In this document: positions 20,158 through 43,890 of the stretch, piece by piece | Position numbering within the stretch: the stretch's first letter is position 1 | Layout of the letters: every line of letters begins with the position of its first letter | DNA from: Phaeodactylibacter sp. | GTDB lineage: Bacteria > Bacteroidota > Bacteroidia > Chitinophagales > Saprospiraceae | Reading direction: 5' to 3' | Length of the DNA stretch: 64,000 bases | Assembly: GCF_040219495.1 (NCBI RefSeq) | Contig: NZ_JAVJSK010000020.1 | Span: 21,293-85,292, forward strand | Notes under the pieces: generated by a model | The model's database searches: none | Seen by the model: only the letters and a program-made list of their open reading frames with translations | What the model was told of the DNA's origin: nothing | Made by a program: the position numbers and the translations under genes

Positions 20158-20260
20158 AATAGCAGTTTTTTCAGAAGCCGGTATTAATGCAGAATAACCT
20201 GGCAGATGATTCTCAATTATTATTCCACCACTGTGGTCTTAAAACCGGGTAGAACCATTA

Positions 20261-20421
20261 AGACTATGTTGGGATTTCACCCTTTGGGCTGCATTTGCCA
20301 AATTTTATCCTGAACTTCGTTGCTCTTCAGTCGCTTAACTCAGGCTAAGCTCCTTCATCCCGCCTTGTTCAGAATAAAATTTGACTACATTCGCTCCAAA
20401 AGCGAATTCCCAACATAGTCT
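20261..20421. repeat. MITE-like element, copy B (161 bp), same family as 3161..3307
   Basis: Ends are agactatgttgggatttc and gaattcccaacatagtct (inverted). The central part cttaactcaggctaagctcc parallels copy A. The right end overlaps the jetD stop codon (20420..20422). Confidence 0.55.
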
Positions 20422-24600: not shown

Positions 24601-25092
24601 TCCGAAGTTGCTGAAGTCCGGGTCGATCTGCAAAGCCTCCTCTGACAGCAGATAGAAGCGTTTGACGCTGTCGTCCTGCATCCAGTACACCTGTGCCAGA
24701 GTGGCGAAGGCGTCTTGAGCCGCGTTGGCAAACACCGCTAGCAGCAAGGTCAGGTGTTTATTATCGGGCCGCAGGTACACATCACGCCCTTTACTAGCCG
24801 TATTGACTTTTTCGTTTTTATAAGCACCCCGGACGTAGCTAAGGAGGTTGCGTTCCCGGCTTTCTGCTCCGGCAGCTTTGTTGTAGGTGATCTTTTGCTG
24901 AGGTACCAGTAAGGTTGTAATGGCATCTACCAACGTAGATTTTCCGGAACCAATATCGCCGGTAAGCAAGGCATTCTGACCGTTGGGGCTGATTTCCCAA
25001 ATGTGCTTGTCGAAGGTTCCCCAGTTGAGGACTTCCAGGCGTTGCAGGCGGTAACCGGCTGAGGGCATTTGTGTTTCAGGTTGAGCTGGCAT
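21610..25092 (-). CDS. jetC: Wadjet JetC (SMC/MukB-like ABC ATPase)
   Basis: 1160 aa. N-terminus LEVLNWGTFDK...LLTGDIGSGKSTLVDAI (Walker A) and a long coiled-coil middle. C-terminal signature SGGQKEKLAYTILASAIAFQ and Walker B FRFVVIDEAFGRGSD. Confidence 0.9.
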   Translation of the reverse strand: MPAQPETQMPSAGYRLQRLEVLNWGTFDKHIWEISPNGQNALLTGDIGSGKSTLVDAITTLLVPQQKITYNKAAGAESRERNLLSYVRGAYKNEKVNTASKGRDVYLRPDNKHLTLLLAVFANAAQDAFATLAQVYWMQDDSVKRFYLLSEEALQIDPDFSNFGTDIRQLKKQLRKQRGAELFNSFSAYADRFRQVFGIRQPEALDLFYQTVSMKSVGNLTEFVREQMLGQTNIQEDINELVAKYADLTMAHRLVAQARQQRDLLQPMIEEADEREKVLEQIHRLEALLDELPGYFAKAKLQAAIRSMDRLKQDWETLEAEILDLQQQEQQSREELARLKAARDNLSVNQQLAQIKLKIKEQSAESERRRAQARKYEDQLTELGQFLAGSHGISLSMPTAVAGFVEQQHRFVAQQEQALAQLEELQEARDPLAVRIDKHRARLEELDKELHSLRQRPTQIPQRNLKLRQKLLTGLNLTEEDLPFAGELLQVLPEEAHWEGAIERQLRGFGLSLLVPDQHYEAVSNFLDRNHLGGKLVYLRTLPHRGSQNSEPDANSLVRKVQIKTDTPFYEWLEMELANRYDYTCCNTMAEFRRAARALTPGGQSKDSRVRHTKDDRYDVNDRRQYILGWSNKPKIKALEEEQREVQGELSGAQAEQKVLRNTERALDEQRRILERLLECPSFESLDFKPLVIRIAQLQEEQQRLESGSEELRDLQAKIVEAEALERKLRAQVGKQYERKGVQKDTLSKLLGLITAFLQQTGLPPLPISAVGKEVTNEVAGSVFNACKEITIPEPEPSAQLRKHLPDLSGAEPAEALAKTEQQLRDKIEGNKGMIRKFRDQESRLAQRIVQKMTTFKQQFPEEVVDVDADIRSVGEFRERYERLQKDDIPRHEERFRELLRTKTIQSILMFKSKLDNFEQDINRKINEINQHLREIDYNPGRYISISKEQVHSEDITTFKQDLRACLSNTYGDVADEELYTEEKFEHVKRLLDRFGGHTEEDSRWTKKVTDVRQWYTFGAEERYRETNELHEYFSDSSGKSGGQKEKLAYTILASAIAFQFGLEWGRSRSRSFRFVVIDEAFGRGSDESTRYGLQLFERLNLQLLIVTPLQKINVIEKHISTVHYVSNPTGQSSMVRNISIAEYQAEKAAREKAVNTSKS

Positions 25093-25676
25093 CAGTATTC
25101 TTTTTGGGCTTCAGCGTAGGCTTGGAGCTGCCCGAGGATTTCGTTCAGTTTTTCGATAGGGACGTAGGCTTTCAGGATACGGCTCACTTCGTAGCGGTCT
25201 TCTTCCCGCACGGTCTGCAGGAAGCCAAAGTTGATCATTTTTTTGATGTCGGCCCGGAGCTTATCTTCCTGTTTGCGCTCATTGGCGGTGGTATCATCCC
25301 AGTACAGCCGCATCATTTCTGCGATATCGCTGTAGCGCAAGACCAACCTGACTTCGCTACCTTCTGACTCAAATTCAAGGAGGCGCTTACGCAAAAGCAC
25401 AATGAGTAGCGTTTGGTGATAACTCAACCGACGGCGGGTCATCAGGCGGGGCTGTGGTTCGGCCTCCTCTTCTTCCGGTTGCTGGCGCAGATAGGCATAA
25501 CCATCCCCTTCCTCAACGATCAATTCCAGCCCCAGCACCTCAAAATAGGTACGCAGACGCTCCCGGTATCGCAGGAGGAGGTTCCAGGCATCGAGGTGCT
25601 GCTCCCGGTACAGGATGCCCTTCAGCAGATAGACCGCCGGGGAACGGATTTCGGCTTTTACAGATGGTTCACTCAT
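25092..25676 (-). CDS. jetB: Wadjet JetB (DUF4194, MukE-like)
   Basis: 194 aa, acidic. Position and size are typical of JetB, and it is translationally coupled on both sides (1-nt and 4-nt overlaps). Confidence 0.82.
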   Translation of the reverse strand: MSEPSVKAEIRSPAVYLLKGILYREQHLDAWNLLLRYRERLRTYFEVLGLELIVEEGDGYAYLRQQPEEEEAEPQPRLMTRRRLSYHQTLLIVLLRKRLLEFESEGSEVRLVLRYSDIAEMMRLYWDDTTANERKQEDKLRADIKKMINFGFLQTVREEDRYEVSRILKAYVPIEKLNEILGQLQAYAEAQKEY

Positions 25677-27133
25677 TTCAGAAACAAGATTTGGGGCAGC
25701 TCTACGGCATAGGTACGCCCCTCGCTTTCATAAAATAATTTTTCCTGCTGTTTGGTATTGACTACTGCTTTTTGCCTGAGCTCCCACTGCGTAGCCAGGC
25801 TGAAATAGGCAACCACCTCGCTCAACCCTTTCTCTACCGGCGTATGCGCCACTATTTCTTTAAGGCTCACCTGCTTTTTGCCGCGCAGCATTTTTTGGAT
25901 TCGCCCCTTCAGCTCCTCCGGATCGATGTAGAGTTGATTGTAGAGCCCCTCTGCCAATACCTTTATAGCATTGCCCGGTACTGGCTGATCAGTTGCCAGC
26001 TGAAGCTCATCGGCAGGTTGAAAAAGGCGGCGCTCCATCACGAGGTTCACGGCAGGCTTCCCGGCGATATCGCTAAAGAAGCGTTGAGGGGGCGGATGGC
26101 TTTTGACCTGTAGAGCCAACTGCTCAATTTCTTCAATCACCTGCCCGGCACGGCGGTTTTCCAAAAAAGTACGGGAGGCCAGAAAACGGCGCAATTGTTC
26201 TATGAGGCGGGTCGTGGTCCGGTCTACCCGCTCGCCGGCCTCAACCAGCAGGATTTTAAGGCGCGGAAGTACAGAGTAGGCGCGGTAGGCTTCCAGCTCC
26301 GGCTGCTCAAACAGCTGCTCCGCCATTTGGTCGAGGCGGTCCTGCCGCTCCTGGTCCATCAAAAAAGCCCAGAAAGCCGTGAAGGTCTTCCCCTGATCCG
26401 TCTCCATGATGGCATCCTGTGCAGAGAAAATCTCGTCCAGTACCTGCCCCCGGCTGTGCTGCCGGTTGATCTGCTCTTCCCGCGCTTTGGTATTGAGCTG
26501 CCGGAAGTTCTCTTCAATCTGCCGGAAATCTGCCAGCAACTTGGCTGCGGTTTCTTCGATCAGCCCCAGCTGTTCGCGCATGCGGGTGGGGTCAAGACGG
26601 CTGACTTCGCCTTCTTCCAATTCCATAATTTGCCGGTCCAGTTCCAGGCGCTGAGCCAGGAGTTGATCAAGGCGTGCCTGTGCATCCGTGGAGCTGCCAT
26701 AGGTCAAATCCTGCAACATGTTGAAGAGCTGTAACAGCCTGGATTCAGCGCCGACAAACTCGCGCTTGTCGAGTTCTGCCATCCAAACCAGGGCTTGCTC
26801 CGTAGCCGGGGTGAGCTCGAAGGTAGCCTCCGGTGCACCTACCTCGTAGTACTGCCGCAGGAAGCCTTCCTGTGTCCATTCTTCCAGGTACGCCCGTGCA
26901 GTCCGTGGGTAAGGTTTCCCTCCCTCTTCTGCCCCTTCATTGGCGGCAAACAGAAAATCAGACAACATCGTGTTGAGCTCCTGACTGCCGTAGGCCTGCC
27001 GGCGTTCTTCGCGGAAGGCACGCCAGAGGAATGCAGCAATCATCGGGGCATGCGTTTTGCGCAAAAGCCGGACTGCCCTGTGCTCTTCCAACAACCTGCC
27101 TACCTCCTCGATATTCGAAAACCGGTCTGCCAT
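25673..27133 (-). CDS. jetA: Wadjet JetA (DUF3375, MukF-like kleisin)
   Basis: 486 aa, first gene of the four-gene jet block. The call rests on size, position and helical character. Confidence 0.82.
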   Translation of the reverse strand: MADRFSNIEEVGRLLEEHRAVRLLRKTHAPMIAAFLWRAFREERRQAYGSQELNTMLSDFLFAANEGAEEGGKPYPRTARAYLEEWTQEGFLRQYYEVGAPEATFELTPATEQALVWMAELDKREFVGAESRLLQLFNMLQDLTYGSSTDAQARLDQLLAQRLELDRQIMELEEGEVSRLDPTRMREQLGLIEETAAKLLADFRQIEENFRQLNTKAREEQINRQHSRGQVLDEIFSAQDAIMETDQGKTFTAFWAFLMDQERQDRLDQMAEQLFEQPELEAYRAYSVLPRLKILLVEAGERVDRTTTRLIEQLRRFLASRTFLENRRAGQVIEEIEQLALQVKSHPPPQRFFSDIAGKPAVNLVMERRLFQPADELQLATDQPVPGNAIKVLAEGLYNQLYIDPEELKGRIQKMLRGKKQVSLKEIVAHTPVEKGLSEVVAYFSLATQWELRQKAVVNTKQQEKLFYESEGRTYAVELPQILFLK

Positions 27134-27144
27134 AATTACCTCTT

Positions 27145-29631
27145 TTACCCCAGCTTGCTGAGCAGGCCGCCCAGCAACTTCGCCGCATTTTTGACTACAT
27201 CAGAACCCTCTACCGGGATTTTCAGATACGACTGCCCGGTTTGTTCGTCCTTTTCTACAATTTCATCCACAAGTGCCTGAGTCGCCCGCTCATCAGCAAG
27301 CGTTTCTGAAAGCCGACCCAGAAAGCTTAGCCCCTCTGACAACAGCCCTGCTCCGGAGGAGGACTGAGGCTGCCTTGCCTGTGCAGGCGATCCCTGACTG
27401 GGCTTGGGCGTTGGTTCCGGTGTTGGTTCTTCATCTTCCCACCAGGCTTCGAGTGTAGCTTCGGAGGGCTCTACCGTTTCACTTCCGCGGTTGGCAGACA
27501 CCTTCTCCAGGTCTTCGTCACTGCTGGCTTCCGCTGGTTCGTGATCAGGCATTTTTGCGGTTTTCACGCGTTCCAGCTCTTCCATAAAGTCCTTAAACTT
27601 GCGGTCACTCATGAAGACGCTATCCTGTGCCGTGTCCAGAACGGCTTCCGCCAATGACGACTTGAACTGCAGGGTCTGTAACATGCGGTGCTCTATGGTG
27701 CCTTCTGCGATGAGGTTGATGACTTGTACCTGCCGCTCCTGCCCAATGCGGAATACGCGCCCAATACGCTGCTCCAGCACTGCCGGGTTCCAGGGCAGGT
27801 CCAGGTTAATGACAAGCGCGGCTTTCTGCAAGTTGAGCCCTACGCCCCCCGCGTCTGTCGACAGGAACACCCGGCATTCGGGGTCTTCCCGAAAGCGGTC
27901 CAGCAATGCACCACGCTTACTGCCCGGAATGCTGCCGTGCAGATAGGCGAAGGGGATCTCGCGGGCTTCCAGCTCCTGAGCGACAAGGCGTGTCATGCGC
28001 TCCCATTGGCTAAACACCACCGCGCTTTCGCCTGCTTCTGCAAGGTGCTCCTCCAGAATGTAAAACAGCTCGTCGAGCTTGGTATCGTGACGGGTTTGCT
28101 GATCAATCAGGTAGGTACTGTTGCAGGACATGCGCATGAGATTGAGGCAGCTCAGCAAACGCCTGCGGTCTTTTTCGGTGAGAAAGCCCATACGCTGCCA
28201 TTTAGCCACCAACTGTGCTACGTCAGCATCATAACTGTTGTGCATTTCCATCTGCCGGGGCGTCATCGGCACCAATAGCTGCTGATCCCGCCGCGGAGGC
28301 AACTGCTTGAGTACTTCCCGCTTTCGGCGTCGGATCATCACCTTATTCAATTTGTTGTAGATAGCATCCAGGTTACGGTAGCCCCGCACGATGCCGTTTT
28401 CGTCTTTCACCTGATGCCGGTAAAGCAATAAATAAAGTGGCCCCATCAGGTATTGGTCCAGAAACTGAACAATAGAATAAAGGTCTTCCAACTTATTTTC
28501 CAGAGGGGTGCCGGTGAGTGCGATCCGGTAGGGTGCTTCCAACCGCTTTACTGCCCGGGCAATTTTTGTGTCCCAGTTTTTGATCCGCTGGGCTTCGTCA
28601 ATGACTAATAAATCCGGATTTGCGGCATTCAGATGAGGGTAATCCCTGGCCACCACATTATAGGTCAGTATTTTATAGACCGGCTCAAAGTCGTCATACT
28701 GCGCTCTGCGTTTGTGGGCAGGCCCTTCCACCACGTGTGCCTGCTGTCCGGTAAACCGTTCGATTTCAGAACGCCACTGATACTTGAGCGAAGTAGGACA
28801 AATGATAAAAACACTGCTGATGCCCATCTCGCGCCGGTAAAGCTCTGCAGCGGCTATCGCCTGAATGGTTTTGCCCAGGCCCATCTCATCAGCAATAAGG
28901 CAACGACCGGCTCTGAAGGCAAACAGGATGCCTTCCTCCTGATAAGGATATAGGGTAGTTTGGACCAGGCCGTCGAGTCCACCGGGCGCTTTCGCTAATG
29001 TTGCAGCCCTGCCGCTCCGCTGTGTATCAGCCCGCTTTTGAATAACGAAATCCAGCACATCCGGATAGCAACGAAAAGCCGGAGCAAGTCCCCGGGCTTT
29101 TTCTAAAAACTGGTCAAAATCCGGATAGGCATACTCATAGAGCACCCCAGCCTCATCAAAGTAGTCTTGGGCCAGTTTTTGCAGCGCTTCCGCTTCCTCT
29201 CCTCCGAGGCGCAGGCGCAAACGCCGCTCTTCCCCATACTCCAGATAAACAGAACTGTAATTGCGGGCTGGCGGTGGCTTACGAAAGTGCTGCTTATTGC
29301 CATGGGTATTGTATAGCTTGTGAAGTGCCCATTCGATATGCTTGCAGGTGCCTAGCGCATTAGTTTTAAAATCCATGCATTCACAAAAGTTCCCCCCGGG
29401 CTCCTGCCCTCTGAGCGCTACCCGGTAGTGGCTGTTCCGCTCTGGATTGATCACCGTGAAATCGGACCAGACCGGGTGCTCACCTTCGTTGACCAACTGA
29501 AAAGCCTGCTCTTTGCCATATTGCTTTCTAAGGTTGACCTGCCAGTCCCGGAGGGTCATTTCTTCCGGCTGCCGGTAGTAGCTTACCTTTTTGGGCTTCT
29601 TCTGCTTCTTTTCTGCTTTCTTTTTAGCCAT
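27145..29631 (-). CDS. SNF2-family helicase with N-terminal SWIM zinc finger
   Basis: SWIM motif CECMDFKTNALGTCKHIEW. SNF2 motifs ADEMGLGKTIQAIA, DEAQRIKN, LTGTPLEN, STDAGGVGLNLQ and QRIGRVFRIGQ, plus an acidic low-complexity C-terminal tail. Its stop is 11 nt upstream of the jetA start. Confidence 0.9.
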   Translation of the reverse strand: MAKKKAEKKQKKPKKVSYYRQPEEMTLRDWQVNLRKQYGKEQAFQLVNEGEHPVWSDFTVINPERNSHYRVALRGQEPGGNFCECMDFKTNALGTCKHIEWALHKLYNTHGNKQHFRKPPPARNYSSVYLEYGEERRLRLRLGGEEAEALQKLAQDYFDEAGVLYEYAYPDFDQFLEKARGLAPAFRCYPDVLDFVIQKRADTQRSGRAATLAKAPGGLDGLVQTTLYPYQEEGILFAFRAGRCLIADEMGLGKTIQAIAAAELYRREMGISSVFIICPTSLKYQWRSEIERFTGQQAHVVEGPAHKRRAQYDDFEPVYKILTYNVVARDYPHLNAANPDLLVIDEAQRIKNWDTKIARAVKRLEAPYRIALTGTPLENKLEDLYSIVQFLDQYLMGPLYLLLYRHQVKDENGIVRGYRNLDAIYNKLNKVMIRRRKREVLKQLPPRRDQQLLVPMTPRQMEMHNSYDADVAQLVAKWQRMGFLTEKDRRRLLSCLNLMRMSCNSTYLIDQQTRHDTKLDELFYILEEHLAEAGESAVVFSQWERMTRLVAQELEAREIPFAYLHGSIPGSKRGALLDRFREDPECRVFLSTDAGGVGLNLQKAALVINLDLPWNPAVLEQRIGRVFRIGQERQVQVINLIAEGTIEHRMLQTLQFKSSLAEAVLDTAQDSVFMSDRKFKDFMEELERVKTAKMPDHEPAEASSDEDLEKVSANRGSETVEPSEATLEAWWEDEEPTPEPTPKPSQGSPAQARQPQSSSGAGLLSEGLSFLGRLSETLADERATQALVDEIVEKDEQTGQSYLKIPVEGSDVVKNAAKLLGGLLSKLG

Positions 29632-29719
29632 TGATTTTCTAATCTTCTATTCTGTGTTTATGTAGTTATCCTGACCTGGAGGACTATAGCGGCCTGCCAG
29701 CTGCACTAAAAAAAACGAC

Positions 29720-30136
29720 CTACATCCAAAGCACCGTAATCGCCTTCTGCTCATACTCCTGCTCCTCTCGCCGAATGCGTTCCTCCCAAGGCTGCTCAAT
29801 GGATGTAGGGCTTGGCCTCAAAGATCATGAGATAGCCGTGCTGTTGACCCAGCTTGTCCATGTAGCGGCCGAGTTGGCGCAGACCATCGGACAAGGTATA
29901 GCTATCGTAGCGAATTTTCAACTCAATGGGGACCAGCTGGCCTTTCCAAAAAACAGCCAGGTCTGTGCGGTCATTGCCAGTGGCCATTTCCCGCTCAATC
30001 CGGCCACCGCCGTTCACTACCCTTTGCAGGAAGGTCAGAAGCAGCCGGTTAACCCATCAAATAGCCCCCGAAAAGGATCCACCATATAGTGCTTCCGGGG
30101 ATCACACAAGCCCGCTGTGTTGAAAAATCGCTTCAT
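29720..30136 (-). pseudogene. Decayed AAA-ATPase/PD-(D/E)XK (PDDEXK_9-type) gene: N-terminal 33 codons joined to the C-terminal nuclease part, plus a frameshift
   Basis: Minus strand reads MKRFFNTAGLCDPRKHYMVDPF..stop. In another frame it reads LLLTFLQRVVNGGGRIEREMATGNDRTDL..VPIELK...YLMIFEAKP. After a further frameshift it reads EQPWEERIRREEQEYEQKAITVLWM-stop. The whole P-loop region is missing. Confidence 0.7.
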
Positions 30137-30451
30137 AAATGTAAAGTTAAGTAATCTCCAGTAGCCCTGCATATTTGAACAGCAGCTAAGTGGTTACCCT
30201 CGCCACAGCTCATTTTCGTCGGAATTCTGTACAGCTTCGACGAGGAAAATGGAAGAATCAGTGAATTTTAACACATTTTAAGATCGTATTCAGAATAACA
30301 GGGTAAGAAAGTACCCATTCCTGAAATGATATACTGAGGATTAGCCAACCGAGCAACGCTCCGCGCTAGCGCCTCCCCGACACAACATCAACAAATTACT
30401 GTATAACCCTTGCTTGCTGTGCCCCCGCTGCAAGCTTAAAAACCTTTGCCA

Positions 30452-31120
30452 ATGCAAGACCTTCTGAATGCTGCAATAGCGGGCGTCAACCTGCCCTTCA
30501 CTTTGCTGCTAGGCCTCGTCATCCTGTACTGGCTGTCGGTCATACTCGGGGCAGTAGACCTCAGCGCTTTCGACTTTGATGTCGATGCGGAGGTTGATCT
30601 TGATGTAGACGCCGATATCGATACCGATGTAGACGCAGGCGGTATGAGCGGCTGGTTCGCCGGGGCCTTGCATTTTTTCAACTTCGGGCGTGTGCCCTTT
30701 ATGCTGGTCCTCACCGCGACGGTGCTTACTGCCTGGGTACTCGCCATTTTGGGCAACCACTATCTGGGGCATTACAGCCCTGCCTACGCGCTGGCCACTG
30801 CCGTCCCCATCTTGTTCATTGGGCTACTGGTGTCCAAAGTGGTTACAACGCCATTTGTGCCGATCTTTGAGCAAATCAGCAAGGAAGCACAACCCATGGA
30901 CTACATCGGGCAAGCCTGTGAGCTGATCCTGCCGGCCAGCTTTACGCAAATGGGGCAGGCCCGGGTACAGGTAGAAGACGACGAGCTACTCATCTATGTC
31001 AAAACAGCAACGCCTGAACTGCAACTGCCAAGCGGGGCCAAGGGGGTGGTCTCCCGTACTGCCCCTGATGGCAGCCACTACCTCATACGGCCCTATCCGG
31101 AAGACGAACCCCTTCTGTAA
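30452..31120 (+). CDS. YqiJ/NfeD-like inner-membrane protein (DUF1449-type) with an acidic (DxD)n loop
   Basis: LHFFNFGRVPFMLVL matches remembered E. coli YqiJ LHYLNIGRLPALVVL. Has 3-4 TM helices and a C-terminal soluble beta-domain (YIGQACELI...QARVQVED). Loop sequence DFDVDAEVDLDVDADIDTDVDAGG. The ORF track starts at TTG 30446; the ATG is at 30452. Confidence 0.75.
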   Translation: MQDLLNAAIAGVNLPFTLLLGLVILYWLSVILGAVDLSAFDFDVDAEVDLDVDADIDTDVDAGGMSGWFAGALHFFNFGRVPFMLVLTATVLTAWVLAILGNHYLGHYSPAYALATAVPILFIGLLVSKVVTTPFVPIFEQISKEAQPMDYIGQACELILPASFTQMGQARVQVEDDELLIYVKTATPELQLPSGAKGVVSRTAPDGSHYLIRPYPEDEPLL

Positions 31121-31189
31121 TCACAACATACACGGCGCAGTACGCTGCTCCTGAACACATAAATTGACAAACCCTTAAATTCTCAATCC

Positions 31190-33313
31190 ATGATCTTACT
31201 CCAAAACCTGGCCGGCCCATTGGGCTGGACCGTACTGGGCATCAGCCTGTTGGTGGTCTTCGGCCTCATCGTCATGCTCATTAGCTGGTACAAGAAAGTG
31301 CCACAGGGCAAAGCCATCATCCGTACTGGCGTAGGCGGCACCAAAGTCGCCATCGAAAACGGCATCATTGTAGTGCCTGGTATTCAGATGCACGAAGTGA
31401 TGGACCTCTCCGTGCGCACCATCGAAATCAGCCGCATGAAGGAAGATGGCCTGATCTGCAAAGACAATATCCGCGCGGACACCAAAGTCGTTTTCTTTGT
31501 GCGTATCAATAAAGAAGTGGCTGACATCAAAAAGGTCGCACAGTCTATCGGCTGTGAGCGGGCCTCAGATACCGCCACCCTGCGGGAGCTGTTTGAAGCC
31601 AAATTCTCAGAAGCCATCAAAACGGTAGGTAAGCGCTTCGACTTTGTGGAGCTCTACGACAGCCGCGAGAAATTCAACTCTGAAATACAGAACGCCATCG
31701 GGCTCAACCTCAATGGCTACATCCTGGAGGATGCTTCCATCGACTACCTGGAGCAGACCGACATCAGCTACCTTAAGGAAAACAACATCCTCGATGCCGA
31801 GGGTATCAAAAAGATCACCGAGCTGACCGCACAGCAGAAGGTGAAAGCCAACTTCATCCGCCGTGAGGAGGAGAAGACCATCACCGAGCAGAATGCGGAA
31901 GCCAAGGAAGCTATACTGGAATACGAGCGCCAACTCATCGAGAAAGAAGAGCGGCAGAAGCGGGAAGTGGCCAACATCAGAGCCCGGGAAACCGCCGAAA
32001 TCGCCAAAATCAATGAAGAAGAGCGCCTGCGTTCCGAAATGGTCCGCATCAAAACGGAGGAGGAGCTTCAGGTCGCCGAAGAAAACCGTATGCGGCAGGT
32101 GATTGTCGCCCTGAAAAACAAGGAGCGGACCGAAGCCATCGAGCAGGAGCGCGTAGAGAAAGACCGTATGCTGGAGCGCACCGAGCGCGAGAAGATTGTC
32201 ACCCTGGCCGAAATCGAGAAGCAGCGCGCGGTGGAAGAAGAGAAGAAGAACATTCAGGACGTCATCCGCGACCGCATCATGGTGGAGAAGAAGGTGGTCG
32301 AGCAGGAAGAGATCATCAAAGACACCAAGGTACTGGCTGAGGCCGAGCGCTTGCGGCAGAAGGAAGTCATTCAGGCGCAGGCCAAAGGCGAAGCCACCGT
32401 GATTGAGCAGCAGAAGAATGCTGAAGCAGCTAAGCTCGCCGCCGAAATGCAGGCCGAGAAGCTCCTGATCGACGCCGAGGCGCAGAAAAATGCCGCTGAG
32501 AAGGAAGCCGAAGCCCGCAAGATTCAGGCCGAAGCAACTGCCGCCGAAGAAGCCACTATCGGATTGTCGGAAGCACAGGTGATCGAGGCCAAAGCAAAAG
32601 CCAGGGAGCTGGAAGGCAAACTGGAAGCCAGCGTGTTGGAGCGCAAAGCTCAGGCCGAAGCCATCGGCATTGAAGCTAAAGCCGAAGCACTGCGCAAGCA
32701 GGGCCGTGCCGAGGCCGAAGTAGCCGACGAGAAAGGACAGGCTGATGCCCGTGTGCTGGAGCTGAAGTTTGCTGCCGAAGCCAAGGGCATTGAGCAGAAA
32801 GCAAACGCTATGAAAGAGCTGGACGGTGTGGGCCGCGAGCACGAGGAGTTCAAGATCCGACTGGAAACCGACAAGGAGATTCAGCTGGCCAATATCAATG
32901 TCTCCAAGGATATCGCTAACGCACAGGCAGGCGTCCTCGGTGAGGCCATGAAGCACGCCAACATCGACATCGTAGGCGGTGAAATGCAGTTTGTCAACAG
33001 TATCCTCAACTCCGTACAGCGGGGCAAGAGTATCGACGGTTTGATCAACAACAGCAGCCACCTGAGCAACCTCAGCCAAAACCTGCTGCCAGCATCCGGC
33101 TCAAATGGTGATGGCCTGCTCTCCCAACTGGGCAGCCTCATCCGCCGTGCCGGCCTGACGATGGACGACATCAAGGACCTCACCCTCACCGCTCTGCTGC
33201 TGCGCCTCGGCGAGCAGTCCGGCAACGTGGAGGAGAAAAGCCTGCTCAAGCGCCTGACCACCAAAGTGGAGGAGTTGGGGCTGGGGGGGCTTAGTGCGGG
33301 GCAATTGCTCTAG
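31190..33313 (+). CDS. Flotillin-family SPFH/Band-7 protein (YqiK-like) with an extended E/A/K-rich coiled coil
   Basis: N-terminal TM, then an SPFH region (YKKVPQGKAIIRTGVGG...DLSVRTIEI...VFFVRINK). More than 400 aa of EA/EK-rich coiled coil follow. The gene order after the yqiJ-like gene mirrors E. coli yqiJK. Confidence 0.9.
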   Translation: MILLQNLAGPLGWTVLGISLLVVFGLIVMLISWYKKVPQGKAIIRTGVGGTKVAIENGIIVVPGIQMHEVMDLSVRTIEISRMKEDGLICKDNIRADTKVVFFVRINKEVADIKKVAQSIGCERASDTATLRELFEAKFSEAIKTVGKRFDFVELYDSREKFNSEIQNAIGLNLNGYILEDASIDYLEQTDISYLKENNILDAEGIKKITELTAQQKVKANFIRREEEKTITEQNAEAKEAILEYERQLIEKEERQKREVANIRARETAEIAKINEEERLRSEMVRIKTEEELQVAEENRMRQVIVALKNKERTEAIEQERVEKDRMLERTEREKIVTLAEIEKQRAVEEEKKNIQDVIRDRIMVEKKVVEQEEIIKDTKVLAEAERLRQKEVIQAQAKGEATVIEQQKNAEAAKLAAEMQAEKLLIDAEAQKNAAEKEAEARKIQAEATAAEEATIGLSEAQVIEAKAKARELEGKLEASVLERKAQAEAIGIEAKAEALRKQGRAEAEVADEKGQADARVLELKFAAEAKGIEQKANAMKELDGVGREHEEFKIRLETDKEIQLANINVSKDIANAQAGVLGEAMKHANIDIVGGEMQFVNSILNSVQRGKSIDGLINNSSHLSNLSQNLLPASGSNGDGLLSQLGSLIRRAGLTMDDIKDLTLTALLLRLGEQSGNVEEKSLLKRLTTKVEELGLGGLSAGQLL

Positions 33314-33321
33314 AGTAGGCC

Positions 33322-33458
33322 GGGGGAGGTTGAGGTTGAGGATAAGGTTGAGGCATACACGGCATGTTCTCCAGCCGCGGCAGCTAGCTGCCGTGCCAGG
33401 CGTACACGTCACCGCTCGCCTCAACCTCAACCTCAGCCTTAACCTCAGCCTCATCCCC
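33322..33458 (+). promoter_or_regulatory. Nested cruciform/stem-loop in the flotillin-AAA+ intergenic region, with arms built from GAGGTT/AACCTC hexamer repeats
   Basis: 33326..33354 pairs with 33418..33446: about 29 positions with 2 mismatches and 2 G-U by manual pairing. The loop contains the perfect palindrome cggcagct/agctgccg (33378..33393). No T-tract follows. Confidence 0.7.
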
Positions 33459-33492
33459 AAGTCCCATTCCAAACCAACAAAACCTCAAAGCA

Positions 33493-36400
33493 ATGACGCA
33501 AACCACCACCTACGATATCATCCGCAACCGCCTGCAGCAGCAAGCCGACGAGCTGCGCAACCGGCTACAGCAGCTCAATACCGCCCGTAAGGACGTCTTC
33601 GGCGCGGTGGAGAGCGCACTGATTGCCAACGACCGCATCACGACCGGCAATTACTGTACGGCGCGCGATATCGTGGCGGTAGGCGAGCACTGCATCCTGG
33701 GCTACAACGTACACCTCGGGCTACGTAGCGGTATCGCACTGCCGGATGTATTTAGCGTGTACCGTTTTACCGGTAAGGGTTTTGAAGCACAGGACTTTTC
33801 TCTCCTCCAAAACGAGGGCTTCCAAACCGACTTCCTGAACCTGTACCGCTACTATAAAGAGGCCTGCTTCGCCCGCTTTGCACAGCGGGGCCGCTACCTC
33901 TACATGGTCTTCCAACTCAAGCCGGGCAGCCCTGACTTCAAAGCCTTCAAGTGGTTGCGCACGGACGATGGCCTGCAGTATGTGGACAACCGCTCCGATC
34001 AGGAGGTGCGCTTCCCTAACCAATACGAATTCCGCTGGCAGCAGGCCGGCCGGGATGAGCAGCGCCACGGACGGCACCCGCATGTCTCTATCCTCGACCG
34101 TGTCTTTGTGGAGACGACCGGAGGCGACCTGACCATCAAGGTAGAGGACAATACCGATGATGGCCGCGGCATCTATCAGGAGGCCGTGGAGTACAAAGAC
34201 CAAACCCTGGATGATGCGGAATTTGCCTACGCCGATCTGGGCCATCTTATCGCCTTGCGCATCAAGCCTTATCAGGAAGACTACCGCTACTTCGTCTTCA
34301 ACGAGAAGATGCAGACCGTAGAGCGCGTAGCTGCCCTGGCGGACTCCGGCGTGCTGCTCCCCGATCAGCAGGGCCTCATCTTTGCCAATGGCTACTACCT
34401 GCAAACGGGGGAGTACAAGCTTTTCGACCACTCTCCGACCGGGCTGCTGTTCAAAAAGCGGGTTGCTTCGCCCAATGGGGAGGACTTCCTGTTTGTATTC
34501 TACGGAGCGGACAGCGGCACCTACCTGCTGCTGCACTACAACATCATCAGTCAGGAAGTCGCTACGCCCATTCTCTGCCAGGGCTTCACCTTGTTCCCGA
34601 ACGGGGAGCTGGTCTATTTCAAAGCCGAGGAAGAGCCCACCAAGCACCACGTGCTGCAGATTTGGCAAACGCCCTTTCTGGAAGGTGAGGCCATCCCTTC
34701 CGGGCATACCGACGCCTACCTGTACAAAGTAGGCAACAAAGACATCGTGCGCGCCATGGCCGAGTGCCAGGAGGTCCTCACTCTCACGGGAAAAGAAGAC
34801 GCCTACGCCAACCTCTACGATGAGCTGGTAAAGCGCACCACCGATGTGCTCGACCGCTACTACTGGATCGATCAGCCTGATGCCTTTCAGATTGACGAAC
34901 CCTTAAAAACACTACGGCAGACCGCCAACACCGCCATCGAAGAGTATGAGAAAAAACGGAGCGCCGAGCGCCGCGACAAAGCCGAAATGGAGCGCGTAGC
35001 TCAAGCCTCCCAAGCCCGCTTCGACAACATCCGCCGTGCCTCCTTTGATAGCATTGAGGACTTTGTGGACAATCTGGGCGGGCTACGGGCACTGCGGGGG
35101 GAAATCGCCGGAATGCGTGAACTACGGTATGCCGACCTGGAGCAGGTCGACGCTTTAGAAGAGCAAGCCCAAAAAGCACAGTCGCAACTGGCAGAAGACT
35201 GTATAACCTTCTTGTTGGAAGACAATGCGCTACAGCCTTATCGCAAGCAGATTGAGGCCGAAGCAGCGCATATTCCACAGTTGGAAACGGCCCGGCAGGC
35301 CGAAGAACTCGAGGCCGTCTTTGATAAGATCGGGCAAGCGCTGGAATTGCTCATCGAGATCGTCAGCAACCTCAAAATCGAAGACGCCACGCAGACCACC
35401 CGTATTATTGACGGCATCTCTGCCCTGTTTACTTTGCTCAATCAGCATAAAGCAGCGGTGAAGCAGCGCGGGAAGCAGTTCCGTACGCAGGAGTCCAAAG
35501 CCGAGTTCGATGCACAGCTCAAGCTGCTGGATCAGAGCATCATCAACTACCTCGACCTGGCCGATACGCCGGAGAAGTGCGACGACTACCTCACCAGGCT
35601 GATGGTACAGCTGGAAGAGCTGGAAGGGAAATTCGCGGAGGTCGATGCCTTTGTCACTGAGCTGTCCGTCAAGCGGGAAGAGGTCTACGCCGCCCTGGAG
35701 AGCCGCAAGAACAGCCTGGTGGAAGCGCGCAACAGCCGTACCGCTAATTTGGCGAAAGCCGCCGACCGCATCCTGGCCGGCATGCAAAAGCGCGCCGCTG
35801 CCTTTAAGGAGGAAGCCGAGGTCAACAGCTTCTTCGCTGCCGACCTGATGGTGGAAAAAGTACGCGGCCTCATCCGCCAACTGCAGGAGCTGGACGACAG
35901 CAACAAGGCCAATGCTGTGCAGACCCAACTGAAAACGCTGAAGGAAGATACCCTGCGCAGCCTGCGCGACCGTAAGGAGCTTTTCGAGGAGGGCGAGAAC
36001 ATCATCCGTCTCGGGCAGCACCGCTTCTCCGTAAATGTGCAGCCGCTGGAGCTGACTGTGGTGCAGGACGACGGGCAATTGCTGTACCACCTCACCGGCA
36101 CCAACTTTTATGAGCCGATTGAGGACGAGGCGCTGTTGCACACCCAAGCCGTCTGGCAGCAAAGCCTGATTTCGGAAAACCCGGAGGTCTGCCGCAGCGA
36201 GTACCTGGCTTACCAATTGTACCGGGAGCATCCGGACTGGCCTGTTAAAACAGAGGCACTGCTACCGCTCGTAACTAAGGCCGCCGGGCAGCGCTACGCC
36301 GAGGGCTACACCAAGGGCATTCACGATGCTGATGCTACGATTATGCTTTCTACTCTGCTGGAAATGAGTCAGGGTATTGGACTGCTGCGCTTTCCGCCTA

Positions 36401-38319
36401 CTGTGCGGGCTTGCGCCAAAAGCTGGTGGACCGCCTTCGTGGAGGCCGACCGGAAGGCGCTTTTGCAAAAGCAGCTAAAGAGCGCCGGCGAAATTCTGGA
36501 GCTCTTCCCCAATACCCGGGAATTTGACTACCTCATCGAAGAACTGGCGCAGGATTTGCGCACTTTTGTGGCTGACACCCGCCTGTTCCCTGCTTTTGCC
36601 GTGCCGCGCGCCGCTGAGTACCTGTTCCGCGAGCTGGCACAGGACGACCATTTTGTCATCAGTGCAGAAGCCGGGCAGCTGTACCGGCAGTTTGTAGATC
36701 TGCTCTCCGGCAAAAAAGCCCTGAAGCGCTTTAAGCAATCGCTCGATGCCCTGCGAGAGCGCCCCCGGGAGCGCTACCTGCTCATCCGTAAGTGGGTGCA
36801 CGCTTTTCTGGAGGAGCAAGGGGAGGCGCAGTGGCTGCCGTATCAGGAGGAAATTGCGGCGTTGTTGTTCGCGGATGATTTTGAGAAAACACGGGTAATC
36901 GAATTGCCCACGAGCCGTCAGCTGGAAGGATTGCGGAGCGACCACCCGGTACTACAGGACGGACAGTATGCGCTCAACTTCCACGCCTTCATGGACAAGC
37001 TGGAGCGCTACTGCGGGGAAACCGTGCCCCTGTTTGAGCAATTCCAAAGCCGTAAGCGGGCACTCACAGGGGAGACGAAGGAAACCCTTCAGCTCGACAG
37101 CTTCAAGCCGCGGGTGATGAGCAGCTTTGTGCGCAACCGCCTTATCGACAAGGTGTACCTGCCCCTGTTTGGTGACAACCTCGCCAAGCAGATGGGCACG
37201 GCAGGCGAGCAGACCCGTACCGACCGCATGGGCCTGCTGCTGTTGCTGTCCCCTCCCGGCTACGGCAAGACCACGCTCATGGAGTACATCGCCAACCGCC
37301 TGGGGCTCATTTTTATGAAAATCAATGGCCCGGCGATCGGGCATCAGGTGACCTCCCTGGCACCCCAGGATGCCAATAGCATGGCTGCTGCCAAAGAGTT
37401 GGAGAAGCTTAACCTGGCCCTGGAAATGGGCGACAACGTCATGCTCTACGTAGACGACATACAGCACTGCCATCCGGAGTTTTTGCAAAAGTTCATCTCC
37501 CTCTGCGATGCGCAGCGCCGTATAGAGGGGGTGTACAAAGGCAAGGCGAAAACCTACGACCTGCGGGGCAGCCGTTTCGCTGTGGTCATGGCTGGCAACC
37601 CCTACACCGAGAGCGGCGACCGCTTCCAAATCCCGGACATGCTGGCTAACCGGGCAGATATTTACAACCTGGGAGACATCATCGGTGACTCTGCAGCGGC
37701 CTTCAAGCTCAGCTATCTGGAGAACGCCCTGACTTCCAACTCGACCCTGGCACAACTTGCCGGCAAGAGCACGAAGGATGTGCACACGCTCATCCAAAGC
37801 GTGGAAACCGGGCAGCTCGAAGGGTTGGAATATGAAGGCAGCCACAGCACTCAGGAGCTGACCGATTACCGGAAGGTGCTGCAGCTGCTGCTGAAAGTGC
37901 GCGATGTGGTATTGACCGTCAATCAGGCGTACATCCGCTCCGCAGCGATGGCCGATGACTACCGCACAGAGCCGGCGTTCAAGCTGCAAGGCTCCTACCG
38001 CAACATGAACAAGCTGGCGGAGAAGATCGCCCCCATCATGAACGAGTCGGAGCTGCGTACCCTGCTCCTCGCCCACTACGAAGGCGAAGTGCAAACGCTG
38101 ACCGCAGACGCCGAGGCCAATTTCCTCAAGCTGAAGGAACTGCTCGGCTGGCAAAGCCCGGCGGAGGCAGAGCGCTGGTCGGCAATTAAAGCGGCATTCC
38201 AGAAAAAACAGCGCTTCGGCGGGGCGGGCGGCAGCGACCGCATGTCGCAGGTCATCGCACAGATGGATGCCTTTAATGAAGGGCTGGCGGGGATACGGCA
38301 GGCGTTGGAGGCGGAGTAA
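33493..38319 (+). CDS. Giant (1608 aa) coiled-coil protein with a single C-terminal AAA+ ATPase module
   Basis: One uninterrupted ORF. It has a beta-rich N-terminal ~400 aa and a long coiled coil at about aa 470-800. Walker A is LLLLSPPGYGKTTLMEYI, Walker B is VMLYVDDIQHCHPEF, and sensor-like motifs are VVMAGNPYTE and NRADIYNLGD. Confidence 0.85.
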   Translation: MTQTTTYDIIRNRLQQQADELRNRLQQLNTARKDVFGAVESALIANDRITTGNYCTARDIVAVGEHCILGYNVHLGLRSGIALPDVFSVYRFTGKGFEAQDFSLLQNEGFQTDFLNLYRYYKEACFARFAQRGRYLYMVFQLKPGSPDFKAFKWLRTDDGLQYVDNRSDQEVRFPNQYEFRWQQAGRDEQRHGRHPHVSILDRVFVETTGGDLTIKVEDNTDDGRGIYQEAVEYKDQTLDDAEFAYADLGHLIALRIKPYQEDYRYFVFNEKMQTVERVAALADSGVLLPDQQGLIFANGYYLQTGEYKLFDHSPTGLLFKKRVASPNGEDFLFVFYGADSGTYLLLHYNIISQEVATPILCQGFTLFPNGELVYFKAEEEPTKHHVLQIWQTPFLEGEAIPSGHTDAYLYKVGNKDIVRAMAECQEVLTLTGKEDAYANLYDELVKRTTDVLDRYYWIDQPDAFQIDEPLKTLRQTANTAIEEYEKKRSAERRDKAEMERVAQASQARFDNIRRASFDSIEDFVDNLGGLRALRGEIAGMRELRYADLEQVDALEEQAQKAQSQLAEDCITFLLEDNALQPYRKQIEAEAAHIPQLETARQAEELEAVFDKIGQALELLIEIVSNLKIEDATQTTRIIDGISALFTLLNQHKAAVKQRGKQFRTQESKAEFDAQLKLLDQSIINYLDLADTPEKCDDYLTRLMVQLEELEGKFAEVDAFVTELSVKREEVYAALESRKNSLVEARNSRTANLAKAADRILAGMQKRAAAFKEEAEVNSFFAADLMVEKVRGLIRQLQELDDSNKANAVQTQLKTLKEDTLRSLRDRKELFEEGENIIRLGQHRFSVNVQPLELTVVQDDGQLLYHLTGTNFYEPIEDEALLHTQAVWQQSLISENPEVCRSEYLAYQLYREHPDWPVKTEALLPLVTKAAGQRYAEGYTKGIHDADATIMLSTLLEMSQGIGLLRFPPTVRACAKSWWTAFVEADRKALLQKQLKSAGEILELFPNTREFDYLIEELAQDLRTFVADTRLFPAFAVPRAAEYLFRELAQDDHFVISAEAGQLYRQFVDLLSGKKALKRFKQSLDALRERPRERYLLIRKWVHAFLEEQGEAQWLPYQEEIAALLFADDFEKTRVIELPTSRQLEGLRSDHPVLQDGQYALNFHAFMDKLERYCGETVPLFEQFQSRKRALTGETKETLQLDSFKPRVMSSFVRNRLIDKVYLPLFGDNLAKQMGTAGEQTRTDRMGLLLLLSPPGYGKTTLMEYIANRLGLIFMKINGPAIGHQVTSLAPQDANSMAAAKELEKLNLALEMGDNVMLYVDDIQHCHPEFLQKFISLCDAQRRIEGVYKGKAKTYDLRGSRFAVVMAGNPYTESGDRFQIPDMLANRADIYNLGDIIGDSAAAFKLSYLENALTSNSTLAQLAGKSTKDVHTLIQSVETGQLEGLEYEGSHSTQELTDYRKVLQLLLKVRDVVLTVNQAYIRSAAMADDYRTEPAFKLQGSYRNMNKLAEKIAPIMNESELRTLLLAHYEGEVQTLTADAEANFLKLKELLGWQSPAEAERWSAIKAAFQKKQRFGGAGGSDRMSQVIAQMDAFNEGLAGIRQALEAE

Positions 38320-38388
38320 TTGTAAGTAAGTACCCGCAAAGCAGGCAGAAAAACTGCTCTGTAAAAGAGAATGATGTAGCACTTTATC

Positions 38389-38423
38389 GCGGAGGCTGGC
38401 TGGAAGGTCAGTCTCCGCTTTCT
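38389..38423 (+). terminator. Putative intrinsic terminator of the flotillin/AAA+ operon
   Basis: gcggag...(18-nt loop)...ctccgc followed by tttct, about 70 nt after the stop. The sequence becomes AT-rich immediately afterwards. Confidence 0.55.
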
Positions 38424-39037: not shown

Positions 39038-39361
39038 ATGATGAAAACACTATTGCTATTCGTTACGATTTTGGGGCTAGCTGCAACTGCTAATCCTTAT
39101 GCATCCAACCACTTGCAATCAGAGGAGACGCTTGGAGGGAGTATTACTTTAGAAAACGTTGTAGTACTACTTACTACTACCAACGACCCGAGCGAGAATA
39201 TTCTCACTATTGAGGTTTATGACGGTGCAATGGTCGTGATGTCTTTTACCGGTTGTGGAGCATCTGTTTGCAGGAATAACATCTCGCTCCTGGCTAACGG
39301 GACTTATTCCGTTGTTGTTACTACAGATGCCGGATCCTTTAGCGGAGGTATTACAAAGTAG
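39038..39361 (+). CDS. Small secreted hypothetical protein
   Basis: An internal Met gives the signal peptide MMKTLLLFVTILGLAATANPYA. Lies in the AT-rich island. The longer ORF from 38969 lacks a signal sequence context. Confidence 0.5.
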   Translation: MMKTLLLFVTILGLAATANPYASNHLQSEETLGGSITLENVVVLLTTTNDPSENILTIEVYDGAMVVMSFTGCGASVCRNNISLLANGTYSVVVTTDAGSFSGGITK

Positions 39362-40787
39362 GCCCTTTACCCTTGGCCAGCACTTGTTCGCCCCAGACCT
39401 GATCAATCAGCGGCCAGCCTTGTATCCGTTCACTGGTAAAGGGTTGGCTGTTTTGACTACAACTCAGCAAATCGTCAAAAAAGCTCATTAATCCTTGTTG
39501 TACATGTGGTGGATACTGACTGCGGGTTACGTACCCCCTAACGCTTCGGATTTGACGCTCCAAAGCTATAAACTCCTGATTTTCGAAATAAATTTTGCTC
39601 AAAATCTTATCAGAACCAATTCTCATAGCAAAATTAGAGTAGTTGGTTTTACTGTAGAGTACCGAGCGCTGGAAAATATGAATGTATTGGTGCGCGTTAG
39701 AGATATCCCCACGATATAGCGCTAAATAAGCCAATGAAAAATACCTATATGCTTTCCGCTCTTTCCTTGAAGCCAAGGCTACTTTATCCCAGTTCCGATT
39801 CAGAAAACCTGAAAACCAGCCTATTTCCCCGGATATCACTGCTGCACTCATAGCACCATTTATTCTATTTAGCATTATGATGTGTCCGTCATTCAAATGG
39901 AGATTACGGTCCTCAAGTTGCTTAATGATTTTAACCAATTCTCCGGCAAACCGGCGGTCTTTATTGATGTTTAATCGGTCAACACAGTAATTAAATAAGG
40001 TTGCCCAATATTGTTTTTGGTAAACATTGGCTACTTCTTTATCAAAACCGTTTGGTTCCTTAGCTATTTCCAGATATTCTTCCGGAGGGCATTGGTCAAG
40101 GACTCGAACCAATTGACCAAAGTGTTTAATATTTTCATCTTTTGTCTGCCCTACTATAGTTTGAATCTTCTCGCGGATATCCTCAACATTCTCTTCTTCT
40201 CCTCCGTATACTTTAATCCGATTATAGGTCTCTAAAAGAAGGCTCATTCGCATATAATCACTAAATTTTTCCAGCGCGCTGCCCCACTTTCTCATATCTG
40301 CATACCCCAGCTGAGCATTACTCCTTTCCTCTTCAGACCTAGCTTTTATCAAAATATGCTGCCCAAGCGTCTCTCCCAAGTAAGGGCCAATGATTTGTTC
40401 TTCGTGACTGTACTGCTCCTTTTCCAATTCCCGCAAATGGTAGTCGAGGTGTTTTCTAAGCCCCAGGTGATCATATTTACCTGCCAACAGAATATGCTTG
40501 AGGCGGGGTTCTTTGTCCAGTGCATCCAATAGCAGATACCGCTCCAGAGCGCGCAGTACACGAGTTTTAAATTTGTTAGCCGCCAATGGCTTCATTGCAT
40601 TGGCTTCCCAGAACGCGGCCTCGCCCTGCGGAAACCTGCGGTTGACGATTTCTTCCGTATACCGTTGCACCAAATCCCGATCATTTTGTGACAGGTTATT
40701 TTCCTTCAGTTCCATTGTTAATAAAAAGCTACGCCTGTCAGCCGGGCTTAGCCGTTCAAAAACCTCATATAGCTTACTTTTCCGCAT
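39351..40787 (-). CDS. Hypothetical all-helical protein (478 aa) in the AT-rich island
   Basis: Long clean ORF in a visibly AT-rich stretch. No catalytic motif recognised. Confidence 0.7.
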   Translation of the reverse strand: MRKSKLYEVFERLSPADRRSFLLTMELKENNLSQNDRDLVQRYTEEIVNRRFPQGEAAFWEANAMKPLAANKFKTRVLRALERYLLLDALDKEPRLKHILLAGKYDHLGLRKHLDYHLRELEKEQYSHEEQIIGPYLGETLGQHILIKARSEEERSNAQLGYADMRKWGSALEKFSDYMRMSLLLETYNRIKVYGGEEENVEDIREKIQTIVGQTKDENIKHFGQLVRVLDQCPPEEYLEIAKEPNGFDKEVANVYQKQYWATLFNYCVDRLNINKDRRFAGELVKIIKQLEDRNLHLNDGHIIMLNRINGAMSAAVISGEIGWFSGFLNRNWDKVALASRKERKAYRYFSLAYLALYRGDISNAHQYIHIFQRSVLYSKTNYSNFAMRIGSDKILSKIYFENQEFIALERQIRSVRGYVTRSQYPPHVQQGLMSFFDDLLSCSQNSQPFTSERIQGWPLIDQVWGEQVLAKGKGPTL

Positions 40788-43685: not shown

Positions 43686-43825
43686 TATTTTCCAATGATT
43701 TCCAATTAATTCAAATTGGTTCAATACTGGGGTCTTTCATTTGTTCGCGGTTTAGTCGAGCTTTGGTTTATTATTCAAATTTCTTATTTCAAATCCATCT
43801 TTTATGGATAACACTAATCTATTTT

Positions 43826-43857
43826 GGATCAATGGATCACTGGATCAATGGATCACT
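43826..43857. repeat. Tandem repeat (ggatcaatggatcact)x2, i.e. four GGATCA octamers and four GATC sites at 8-bp spacing
   Basis: Read directly from the sequence. Lies 34 nt upstream of the likely start (43891) of the T9SS cargo gene. Confidence 0.85.
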
Positions 43858-43890
43858 ACGCTAAATCACAGGTCCCCCCTGTTTAAGGGA

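Follow-up and report, generated by a model that had tools for sequence, protein, structure and literature searches.

A stretch of 64,000 nucleotides from Phaeodactylibacter sp. (contig NZ_JAVJSK010000020.1, positions 21,293 to 85,292 of the forward strand; the whole stretch is called the window here, and all coordinates refer to it) carries three co-directional genes for a YqiJ/YuaF-type membrane protein (g1), a flotillin (g2), and a giant AAA+ ATPase (g3), next to an SNF2 helicase gene and a Wadjet defense system. The locus raises the question whether this trio belongs to the defense genes at its side, as a membrane-anchored, ATP-driven conflict system of the kind that an earlier note on this DNA had proposed as an alternative to a membrane-stress system, or whether it is an independent unit with a function of its own. 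Comparison with homologous loci points to the second answer: the trio is an ordinary member of an operon type found in several phyla, and its adjacency to Wadjet is a local accident. With a probability slightly above one half (roughly 0.55), the trio would serve in membrane stress or membrane remodelling, with flotillin- or PspA-type assemblies as the target of the ATPase, a statement that is made by analogy and at the level of the functional class.

The open reading frame (ORF) call placed g1 at 30446–31120 from a TTG start codon (30452 from the first ATG), g2 at 31190–33313 (707 amino acids, aa), and g3 at 33493–38319 (1608 aa), all on the forward strand in the order g1-g2-g3, with intergenic gaps of 69 and then 179 nucleotides (nt); positions, strand, and gaps agree with those listed in the earlier note. 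The ATPase belongs to a large family, with more than 4986 homologs of g3 in a collection clustered at 90% identity, 428 clusters at 50% identity for residues 1–1200 (E ≤ 1e-30), and homologs in at least 585 species genomes. The best 80 loci among these genomes served as synteny sample; their ORFs were called and searched with g1, g2, and g3, and the 61 loci with over 3.6 kb of DNA on the 5' side of the ATPase gene were counted as informative. A flotillin gene lay directly upstream of the ATPase gene, on the same strand, in 59 of these 61 loci, and a YqiJ-type gene was also present in 57; the syntenic loci come from Bacteroidota, Planctomycetota, Verrucomicrobiota, Desulfobacterota, and Clostridia, and the ATPase occurred without a flotillin partner in two loci (L030 and L037). 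The gaps between g1 and g2 are mostly shorter than 60 nt, with a 4-nt overlap in several loci, and those between g2 and g3 range from -11 (an overlap) to 2360 nt. The best matches to named organisms fall into the genus Phaeodactylibacter (Saprospiraceae, Bacteroidota); ATPase identity is 93% within the genus (94% to Phaeodactylibacter sp. HH_bin12), approximately 66% within the family, and 44–55% in other classes and phyla. Since gene order is kept on one strand in 57–59 of the 61 loci, across five phyla, the three genes are regarded as functionally linked; judged by this synteny, they constitute a genuine, deeply conserved predicted operon whose linkage goes beyond chance. The possibility of three unrelated genes that happen to stand side by side was rejected on the same count. 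The earlier note had seen a three-gene unit here and had named missing synteny in other genomes as the contrary outcome; linkage is what the survey returned.

A gene set of this kind has already been described, by computation. Ravi et al. (2024; mSystems 9:e00847-23, PMC11237479; bioRxiv 2020) reported an operon of a CesT/Tir-PspA dyad, a YqiJ/YuaF protein with three transmembrane (TM) segments, a band-7/flotillin protein, and an ATPase that combines beta-propeller, coiled coil, and AAA+ module; the last three proteins match the window trio in identity, architecture, and gene order. The example from Dokdonia donghaensis (ANH61663.1; Table S3, PMC11237479) shows the same gene string, including a divergent regulator with helix-turn-helix (HTH) and protease domains, and an abbreviated form without PspA was described as well (Ravi et al., 2024; PMC11237479). 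Their interpretation, PspA-associated membrane dynamics comparable to those of Snf7/Vps4, is part of a purely computational description (PMC11237479). A giant AAA+ partner, which had at first appeared to fall outside the flotillin model, is therefore covered by published architectures, in the full and in the abbreviated form.

Both forms were recovered among the loci surveyed here. Clustering of all other ORFs in the 80 loci produced just three recurrent families, all of them upstream of g1: a protein of ~132 aa with a CesT_Tir_1 match (E = 1e-53) and one of ~237 aa with a PspA_IM30 match (E = 8e-39), both encoded on the same strand as the trio, and a divergently encoded protein of ~251 aa with HTH_3 and Peptidase_S24 domains. 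The CesT, PspA, and HTH-S24 regulator genes were found in 27–28 of 34 Bacteroidota loci, in agreement with the membrane-stress half of the earlier proposal, and the full form of Ravi et al., including the divergent regulator, was recovered in 27 Bacteroidota loci with g3 homologs. The three families were missing from all 25 informative loci outside the Bacteroidota and from the Saprospiraceae loci, and searches for PspA, CesT, and XRE (phmmer; PspA profile) produced no match anywhere in the 64-kb window. Because the CesT/Tir-PspA dyad and the regulator, which distinguish the full form, are missing from the window as they are from the other Saprospiraceae loci, the window trio represents the abbreviated form of this operon, the one that lacks PspA, and is an unremarkable example of it.

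The architecture of the ATPase has been read from Pfam matches and from two AlphaFold2 models of its parts (residues 1–700 and 851–1608), built on alignments of 36 sequences. Pfam assigned DUF3686 to residues 20–457 (E = 2e-179), DUF7902 to residues 578–661, and AAA/AAA_5 to residues 1249–1372; in order, the protein consists of an N-terminal helix, a beta-propeller, a coiled-coil and helical region, a helical domain, a single AAA+ module, and C-terminal helices. The model of residues 1–700 (m27e700cdc283; mean predicted local distance difference test score, pLDDT, 86) shows a helix at residues 6–36, approximately 27 strands between residues 42 and 392, and long helices at residues 409–699 in the DSSP assignment; helix and propeller make up the DUF3686 region (33550–34863, forward strand), and Foldseek matched the propeller to generic WD40-like and other beta-propellers with probability 1.0 at 5–12% identity. 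The long helices and coiled coil that include DUF7902 (residues ~409–850, by DSSP and Pfam) correspond to 34717–36042; within them, residues 700–850 are predicted to be helical from the sequence only. The second model (mcbfda645f6b1; pLDDT 86, and mostly 88–96 within residues 851–1215) adds a small beta unit and, after it, a domain made of helices only (residues 851–1215, 36043–37137), and then, by motifs and model, the AAA+ core with its C-terminal helical region (residues 1216–1608, 37138–38316). A hydrophobicity scan of the sequence found no TM segment, which indicates a soluble protein. The domain sequence that had first been suggested for g3, a beta-rich N-terminus, a coiled coil, a helical region, and one AAA+ module, is borne out by Pfam and AlphaFold2, and the AlphaFold and Foldseek comparison that the earlier note had recommended recovered propeller, coiled coil, and AAA+ module. 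ATPase homologs in Planctomycetota, Desulfobacterota, and some Verrucomicrobiota are 150–370 residues longer than those in Bacteroidota, up to ~1978 aa (loci L016, L017, L022, L025, L037, L050, and L082).

Public names for this protein point in another direction: NCBI calls it 'DNA repair ATPase,' and the Pfam description of DUF3686 reads 'ATPase involved in DNA repair,' so that g3 could be a DNA-repair ATPase for which the adjacent flotillin gene is functionally irrelevant. RuvB is among the nearest structures of the AAA+ core, and g3 has weak matches to RuvB_N and RuvB (E = 1e-4 and 7e-5); yet these matches are limited to the P-loop (residues 1238–1285) and reach 20–22 bits against cut-offs of 27–299. 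The NCBIfam scan produced just sub-threshold RuvB/CDC48 matches to the P-loop, and the best sequence match in the PDB, p97/Cdc48 (E = 1e-5), was confined to the P-loop region as well. Pfam and NCBIfam detected neither a nuclease nor a helicase or DNA-binding domain in g3, no linked repair gene was found among the recurrent neighbors in the 80 loci, and the literature searches found no paper supporting the name. In 59 of 61 loci, the ATPase gene is instead linked with two genes for membrane proteins, and many Bacteroidota add a link with PspA. A role in DNA repair is hardly credible on this evidence; the name presumably stems from coiled-coil similarity to SbcC/SMC-type proteins.

In the AAA+ module, Walker A (SPPGYGKT, residues 1253–1260), Walker B (LYVDD, residues 1318–1322, within LYVDDIQH at residues 1318–1325, nt 37444–37467), the sensor-1 residue N1369, and the arginine R1387 appear to complete the motif set of an active AAA+ protein, with R1387 as the putative arginine finger. 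Residues G1256–T1260 (GYGKT), D1321–D1322, N1369, and R1387 are invariant across 30 diverse members of the family, at identities down to 31%. In the strand order of the model, Walker B and sensor 1 are separated by a beta-hairpin, which may be read as a pre-sensor-1 hairpin. Walker B ends in DD, with aspartate replacing the usual catalytic glutamate (DE), and an aromatic pore-loop residue is missing from the conserved loop that follows strand 2 (NGPAxGH); together, these two features suggest an atypical AAA+ mechanism.

The nearest solved cores found by Foldseek are those of CbbQ and NorQ (MoxR type), RuvB, and ClpA/ClpB. This result bears on the main rival to the membrane-remodelling reading, by which g3 would be a MoxR-like assembly chaperone that inserts or matures a specific client, for instance a membrane complex or a protein with a cofactor, inside the flotillin microdomain and leaves the scaffold itself as it is. 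The target TM-scores of CbbQ and NorQ (0.44–0.57), the Pfam AAA_5 match, and one JGI annotation as 'MoxR-like ATPase' are in line with a chaperone, and Ravi et al. favored a chaperone-like role of the band-7, CesT, and AAA+ partners in membrane-complex assembly (PMC11237479). However, RuvB and ClpA/B reach Foldseek scores similar to those of the MoxR proteins, and outside the Bacteroidota no conserved linked client gene was found. The usual companion of a MoxR protein is a VWA-domain protein, and no such partner recurs in the neighborhood across the 80 loci. In contrast to the MoxR type, g3 is approximately five times larger, carries an N-terminal propeller and a coiled coil, has the DD variant of Walker B, and has no linked VWA partner. 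Taken together, the client-specific chaperone is unlikely.

Other known systems resemble the trio in part. In HflK/C-FtsH and in the eukaryotic prohibitin/m-AAA and SLP2-YME1L, an SPFH cage is coupled, genetically or physically, to an AAA+ machine, a precedent for an AAA+ enzyme organized or regulated by an SPFH assembly. Compared with these systems, g3 lacks a protease domain and a TM anchor and has a propeller and long coiled coils; its homology to FtsH, m-AAA, and YME1L is confined to the AAA+ fold. The comparison with ESCRT-III (Snf7)/Vps4 is a functional analogy drawn by Ravi et al. (PMC11237479) between a PspA/ESCRT-III-type polymer and its dedicated AAA+ remodeller; g3 itself is not a homolog of Vps4, has no MIT match, carries the putative pre-sensor-1 hairpin in its core, and is encoded at a locus without PspA. 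The pairs yqiJ-yqiK of E. coli and yuaF-floT of B. subtilis share with the trio a small gene with several TM segments directly upstream of a flotillin-type SPFH gene; in contrast to both, the window trio adds a giant AAA+ gene downstream, its flotillin is longer (707 aa), and its g1 product has a (D-hydrophobic)n loop and no NfeD OB fold that Pfam detects.

The flotillin assignment of g2, which had been made from the sequence at the outset, is confirmed by its N-terminal part: residues 1–234, scanned alone, match Band_7/SPFH (E = 7e-13, aligned residues 36–182), whereas the whole-protein Pfam scan produced no match. One N-terminal TM segment (residues 14–32) precedes the SPFH domain, and a coiled coil of ~345 aa (residues 215–560; 22% E, 16% A, 11% K) is followed by a C-terminal region. 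Close homologs are named 'flotillin family protein' or YqiK (the latter by JGI), and the flotillin of Phaeodactylibacter xiamenensis is 96% identical. As a single sequence, g2 found nothing useful in the PDB; its profile has a weak match to the coiled coil of QmcA (E = 0.001). The linked flotillins in other loci are mostly 652–790 aa long, with one ORF of 510 aa, so that the coiled coil, initially called unusually long, has a length that is a trait of the family.

For g1 (222–224 aa), the early YqiJ-type call is supported by a match to Pfam YqiJ_N (E = 2e-5; 25 bits, cut-off 23). Three hydrophobic segments (residues 17–35, 83–101, and 113–131) indicate a 3-TM protein. An acidic loop of alternating aspartate and hydrophobic residues (DFDVDAEVDLDVDADIDTDVDAGG; residues 41–64, nt 30572–30643, forward strand) follows the first TM segment; the (Asp-hydrophobic)n pattern might bind divalent cations. 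The loop is present as the earlier note had described it; it is not unusual, being a trait of the whole g1 family that is kept across phyla (homologs in L002–L083) and varies strongly in length, the most acidic 25-aa segment containing between 5 and 13 acidic residues. The C-terminal soluble domain is probably an NfeD-like OB fold. Residues 106–222 had no Pfam match at E ≤ 10 and g1 as a single sequence found nothing useful in the PDB, and the top PDB match of the family profile, weak at E = 0.18, is the C-terminal domain of B. subtilis YuaF (2k14).

The spacer between g2 and g3 (33314–33492, forward strand) contains a long imperfect inverted repeat, detected by RNA folding. GAGGTT-type hexamer repeats at 33322–33353 stand opposite their complement at 33419–33456, with an inner GC-rich hairpin between these arms, and the predicted fold reaches -78 kcal/mol (z = -6.5). 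The repeat occurs once in the window and had no meaningful match in Rfam; four Phaeodactylibacter relatives have longer versions at the same site, in spacers of 206–249 nt with folds of -120 to -137 kcal/mol. As a partial terminator or an element of mRNA stability, the hairpin could fix the ratio of flotillin to ATPase. In other genomes, insertions are tolerated at the g2-g3 junction: approximately 20 loci have extra DNA or small genes there, with gaps of 500–2360 nt in L008, L009, L010, L013, L033, L056, and others. A few loci contain a small ORF (median ~146 aa) between g2 and g3 that looks by eye like a DUF559/Vsr-type endonuclease, and Pontibacter sp. G13 has an ORF of 226 aa between the flotillin and ATPase genes (L001, 9191–9871).

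From these components, a mechanism can be sketched for the membrane-stress module. The YqiJ-type protein and the flotillin would form an oligomeric scaffold of SPFH/NfeD type at the cytoplasmic face of the inner membrane, by analogy with the solved SPFH cages; beta-propeller and coiled coil would dock the ATPase onto this scaffold, and the AAA+ module would spend ATP to assemble, remodel, or disassemble it. Where PspA is present, its polymers or their client membrane proteins may be remodelled as well, and the setting would be membrane maintenance or repair under envelope stress. A connection between SPFH proteins and the phage-shock protein (PSP) is also suggested by the title of Scholz et al. 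(2021), as listed in a 2025 review, according to which the B. subtilis phage-shock protein requires an SPFH-domain protein for its link to the membrane.

Several observations count against this interpretation. The C-terminal Flot domain of Pfam was not detected in g2, nor was the Pfam NfeD OB domain detected. The absence of PspA and CesT from the window and from all 25 informative loci outside the Bacteroidota shows that the PspA link is not universal. Walker B with DD and the missing pore-loop aromatic make both substrate threading and fast hydrolysis uncertain, and the lengths of flotillin and ATPase do not co-vary (rho = 0.12, p = 0.42). The contact between flotillin and ATPase, and the mechanism built on it, are proposed from genomic context and by analogy; literature searches on DUF3686/PF12458, on the flotillin-linked 'DNA repair ATPase,' and on YqiK, YqiJ, and ATPase together found no experimental study of the g3 family, and in a P. 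aeruginosa SPFH paper AAA+ is mentioned in the reference list only. A coiled-coil ruler, by which the lengths of flotillin and ATPase would be matched to each other, was considered separately and rejected on the rho and p values given above.

A narrower version of the membrane-remodelling reading would make the ATPase a dedicated ATP-driven machine for assembly and disassembly of the flotillin-YqiJ dome, independent of PspA. The trio is found without linked PspA in every informative locus of Planctomycetota, Verrucomicrobiota, Clostridia, and Desulfobacterota, and in Saprospiraceae; this version is put forward tentatively, as a possibility with the odds against it. If it were true, no energy-dependent regulator of a flotillin microdomain would have been known before this ATPase, and the conserved g2-g3 hairpin would set a high flotillin-to-ATPase ratio.

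On the 5' side of the trio, a complete type I Wadjet system (JetA–D, 20420–27133, reverse strand) was identified by strong PADLOC matches; an SNF2 helicase gene (27145–29631, reverse strand) is co-oriented with JetA, stops 11 nt short of it, and lies 814 nt from g1. In between, on the reverse strand, is a gene remnant (29762–30043, with a 73-aa ORF at 29796–30017), whose intact counterpart in P. xiamenensis encodes a protein of 503 aa with weak matches to AAA_16, AAA_22, and AAA_35 (L084, 7298–8809); two further loci, L085 and L086, lack most of this gene, and the spacer between SNF2 and g1 is a small hotspot of gene decay. The segment upstream of g1 had been read as a divergent promoter region; it does separate oppositely oriented genes, and what it holds is this remnant of a lost ATPase/nuclease gene.

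On this layout rests the suggestion that the trio is an anti-phage or anti-plasmid system, a membrane-anchored, ATP-driven defense or abortive-infection module in the same island as Wadjet. Large multidomain NTPases are frequent in defense systems, the trio lies next to SNF2 and Wadjet with the ATPase/nuclease remnant in between, and an AT-rich stretch follows downstream. The Wadjet block, however, is absent from this site in a relative. In Phaeodactylibacter sp. HH_bin12 (L004), the flanks that correspond to window positions 18216–20190 and 30163–30344 are conserved and only 36 nt apart; because of this, positions 20191–30162, with JetD–A, SNF2, and the remnant, are an indel of ~10 kb beside the trio. 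Both trio flanks and the downstream genes are kept in L004, the Wadjet block is shared by P. xiamenensis genomes (L084 and L085), and the SNF2 gene appears to travel with Wadjet. Homologs of the window's Jet or SNF2 proteins were found near the trio in none of the 80 loci from other species, and g1, g2, and g3 matched no family of PADLOC-DB 2.0 at E ≤ 0.1.

The wider neighborhoods agree with this result. The earlier note had proposed to survey the trio for nearby defense genes; in a flank sample of 120 proteins (two ORFs per side from ~31 loci, the closest ones with 150 aa or more; raw counts), there was no recurrent family, PADLOC matches were sporadic with one member per family, and most Pfam matches pointed to metabolism or housekeeping functions (Hsp70, MetE, glycoside hydrolases, BacA, Dus). 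Recurrent neighbors are limited to PspA, CesT, and the HTH-S24 regulator, and ATPase identity declines with taxonomic distance, from 93% to ~66% and 44–55%. The trio is not part of the Wadjet island; the conflict or defense function that had been proposed for it finds no backing in PADLOC matches, in the other loci, or in a Wadjet block that is itself an indel, and is very improbable.

At the downstream boundary, a terminator-like hairpin with a T-rich tail (TTTCTATTAA; 38389–38418, forward strand) begins 70 nt 3' of the g3 stop codon; its 13-bp stem has 8 G-C pairs and is followed by TTTCTATT, and it is called a terminator by consensus match only. GC content falls past this boundary from 0.59 to 0.48 and then 0.42, so that the hairpin, the T-tract, and the change in composition were all correctly recognized in the earlier note; the GC content of the trio itself (0.53–0.59) lies inside the range across the window. 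The Bacteroidota promoter motif TAnnTTTG is absent upstream of g1 and from both intergenic spacers, and a sigma-70 promoter scan scored no better than shuffles; the sequence is therefore silent on promoters and co-transcription. An Rfam scan of 29–40 kb returned nothing but a match with a plant miRNA hairpin, which lies far under its gathering score and is put down to chance. The downstream AT-rich stretch contains two large ORFs, at 39351–40787 (reverse strand, 478 aa) and 43804–46062 (forward strand, 752 aa), for which Pfam and PADLOC gave no match; of the two, the 478-aa ORF is kept in L004, L084, and L085.

For annotation, the consequence is that the name 'DNA repair ATPase' is unsupported, and that the operon belongs with the PSP/flotillin envelope-stress network and not with the defense systems. 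The locus also illustrates that proximity to a defense island is by itself weak evidence of a defense function, as a conserved operon here stands next to a Wadjet system that is a 10-kb indel. What remains of interest in the window is a small local oddity, the long, conserved hairpin of the g2-g3 spacer, and above all the giant ATPase that is linked to the flotillin: a flotillin-linked AAA+ protein of ~1600 residues in at least 585 species offers a concrete handle on the function and control of bacterial flotillin assemblies.

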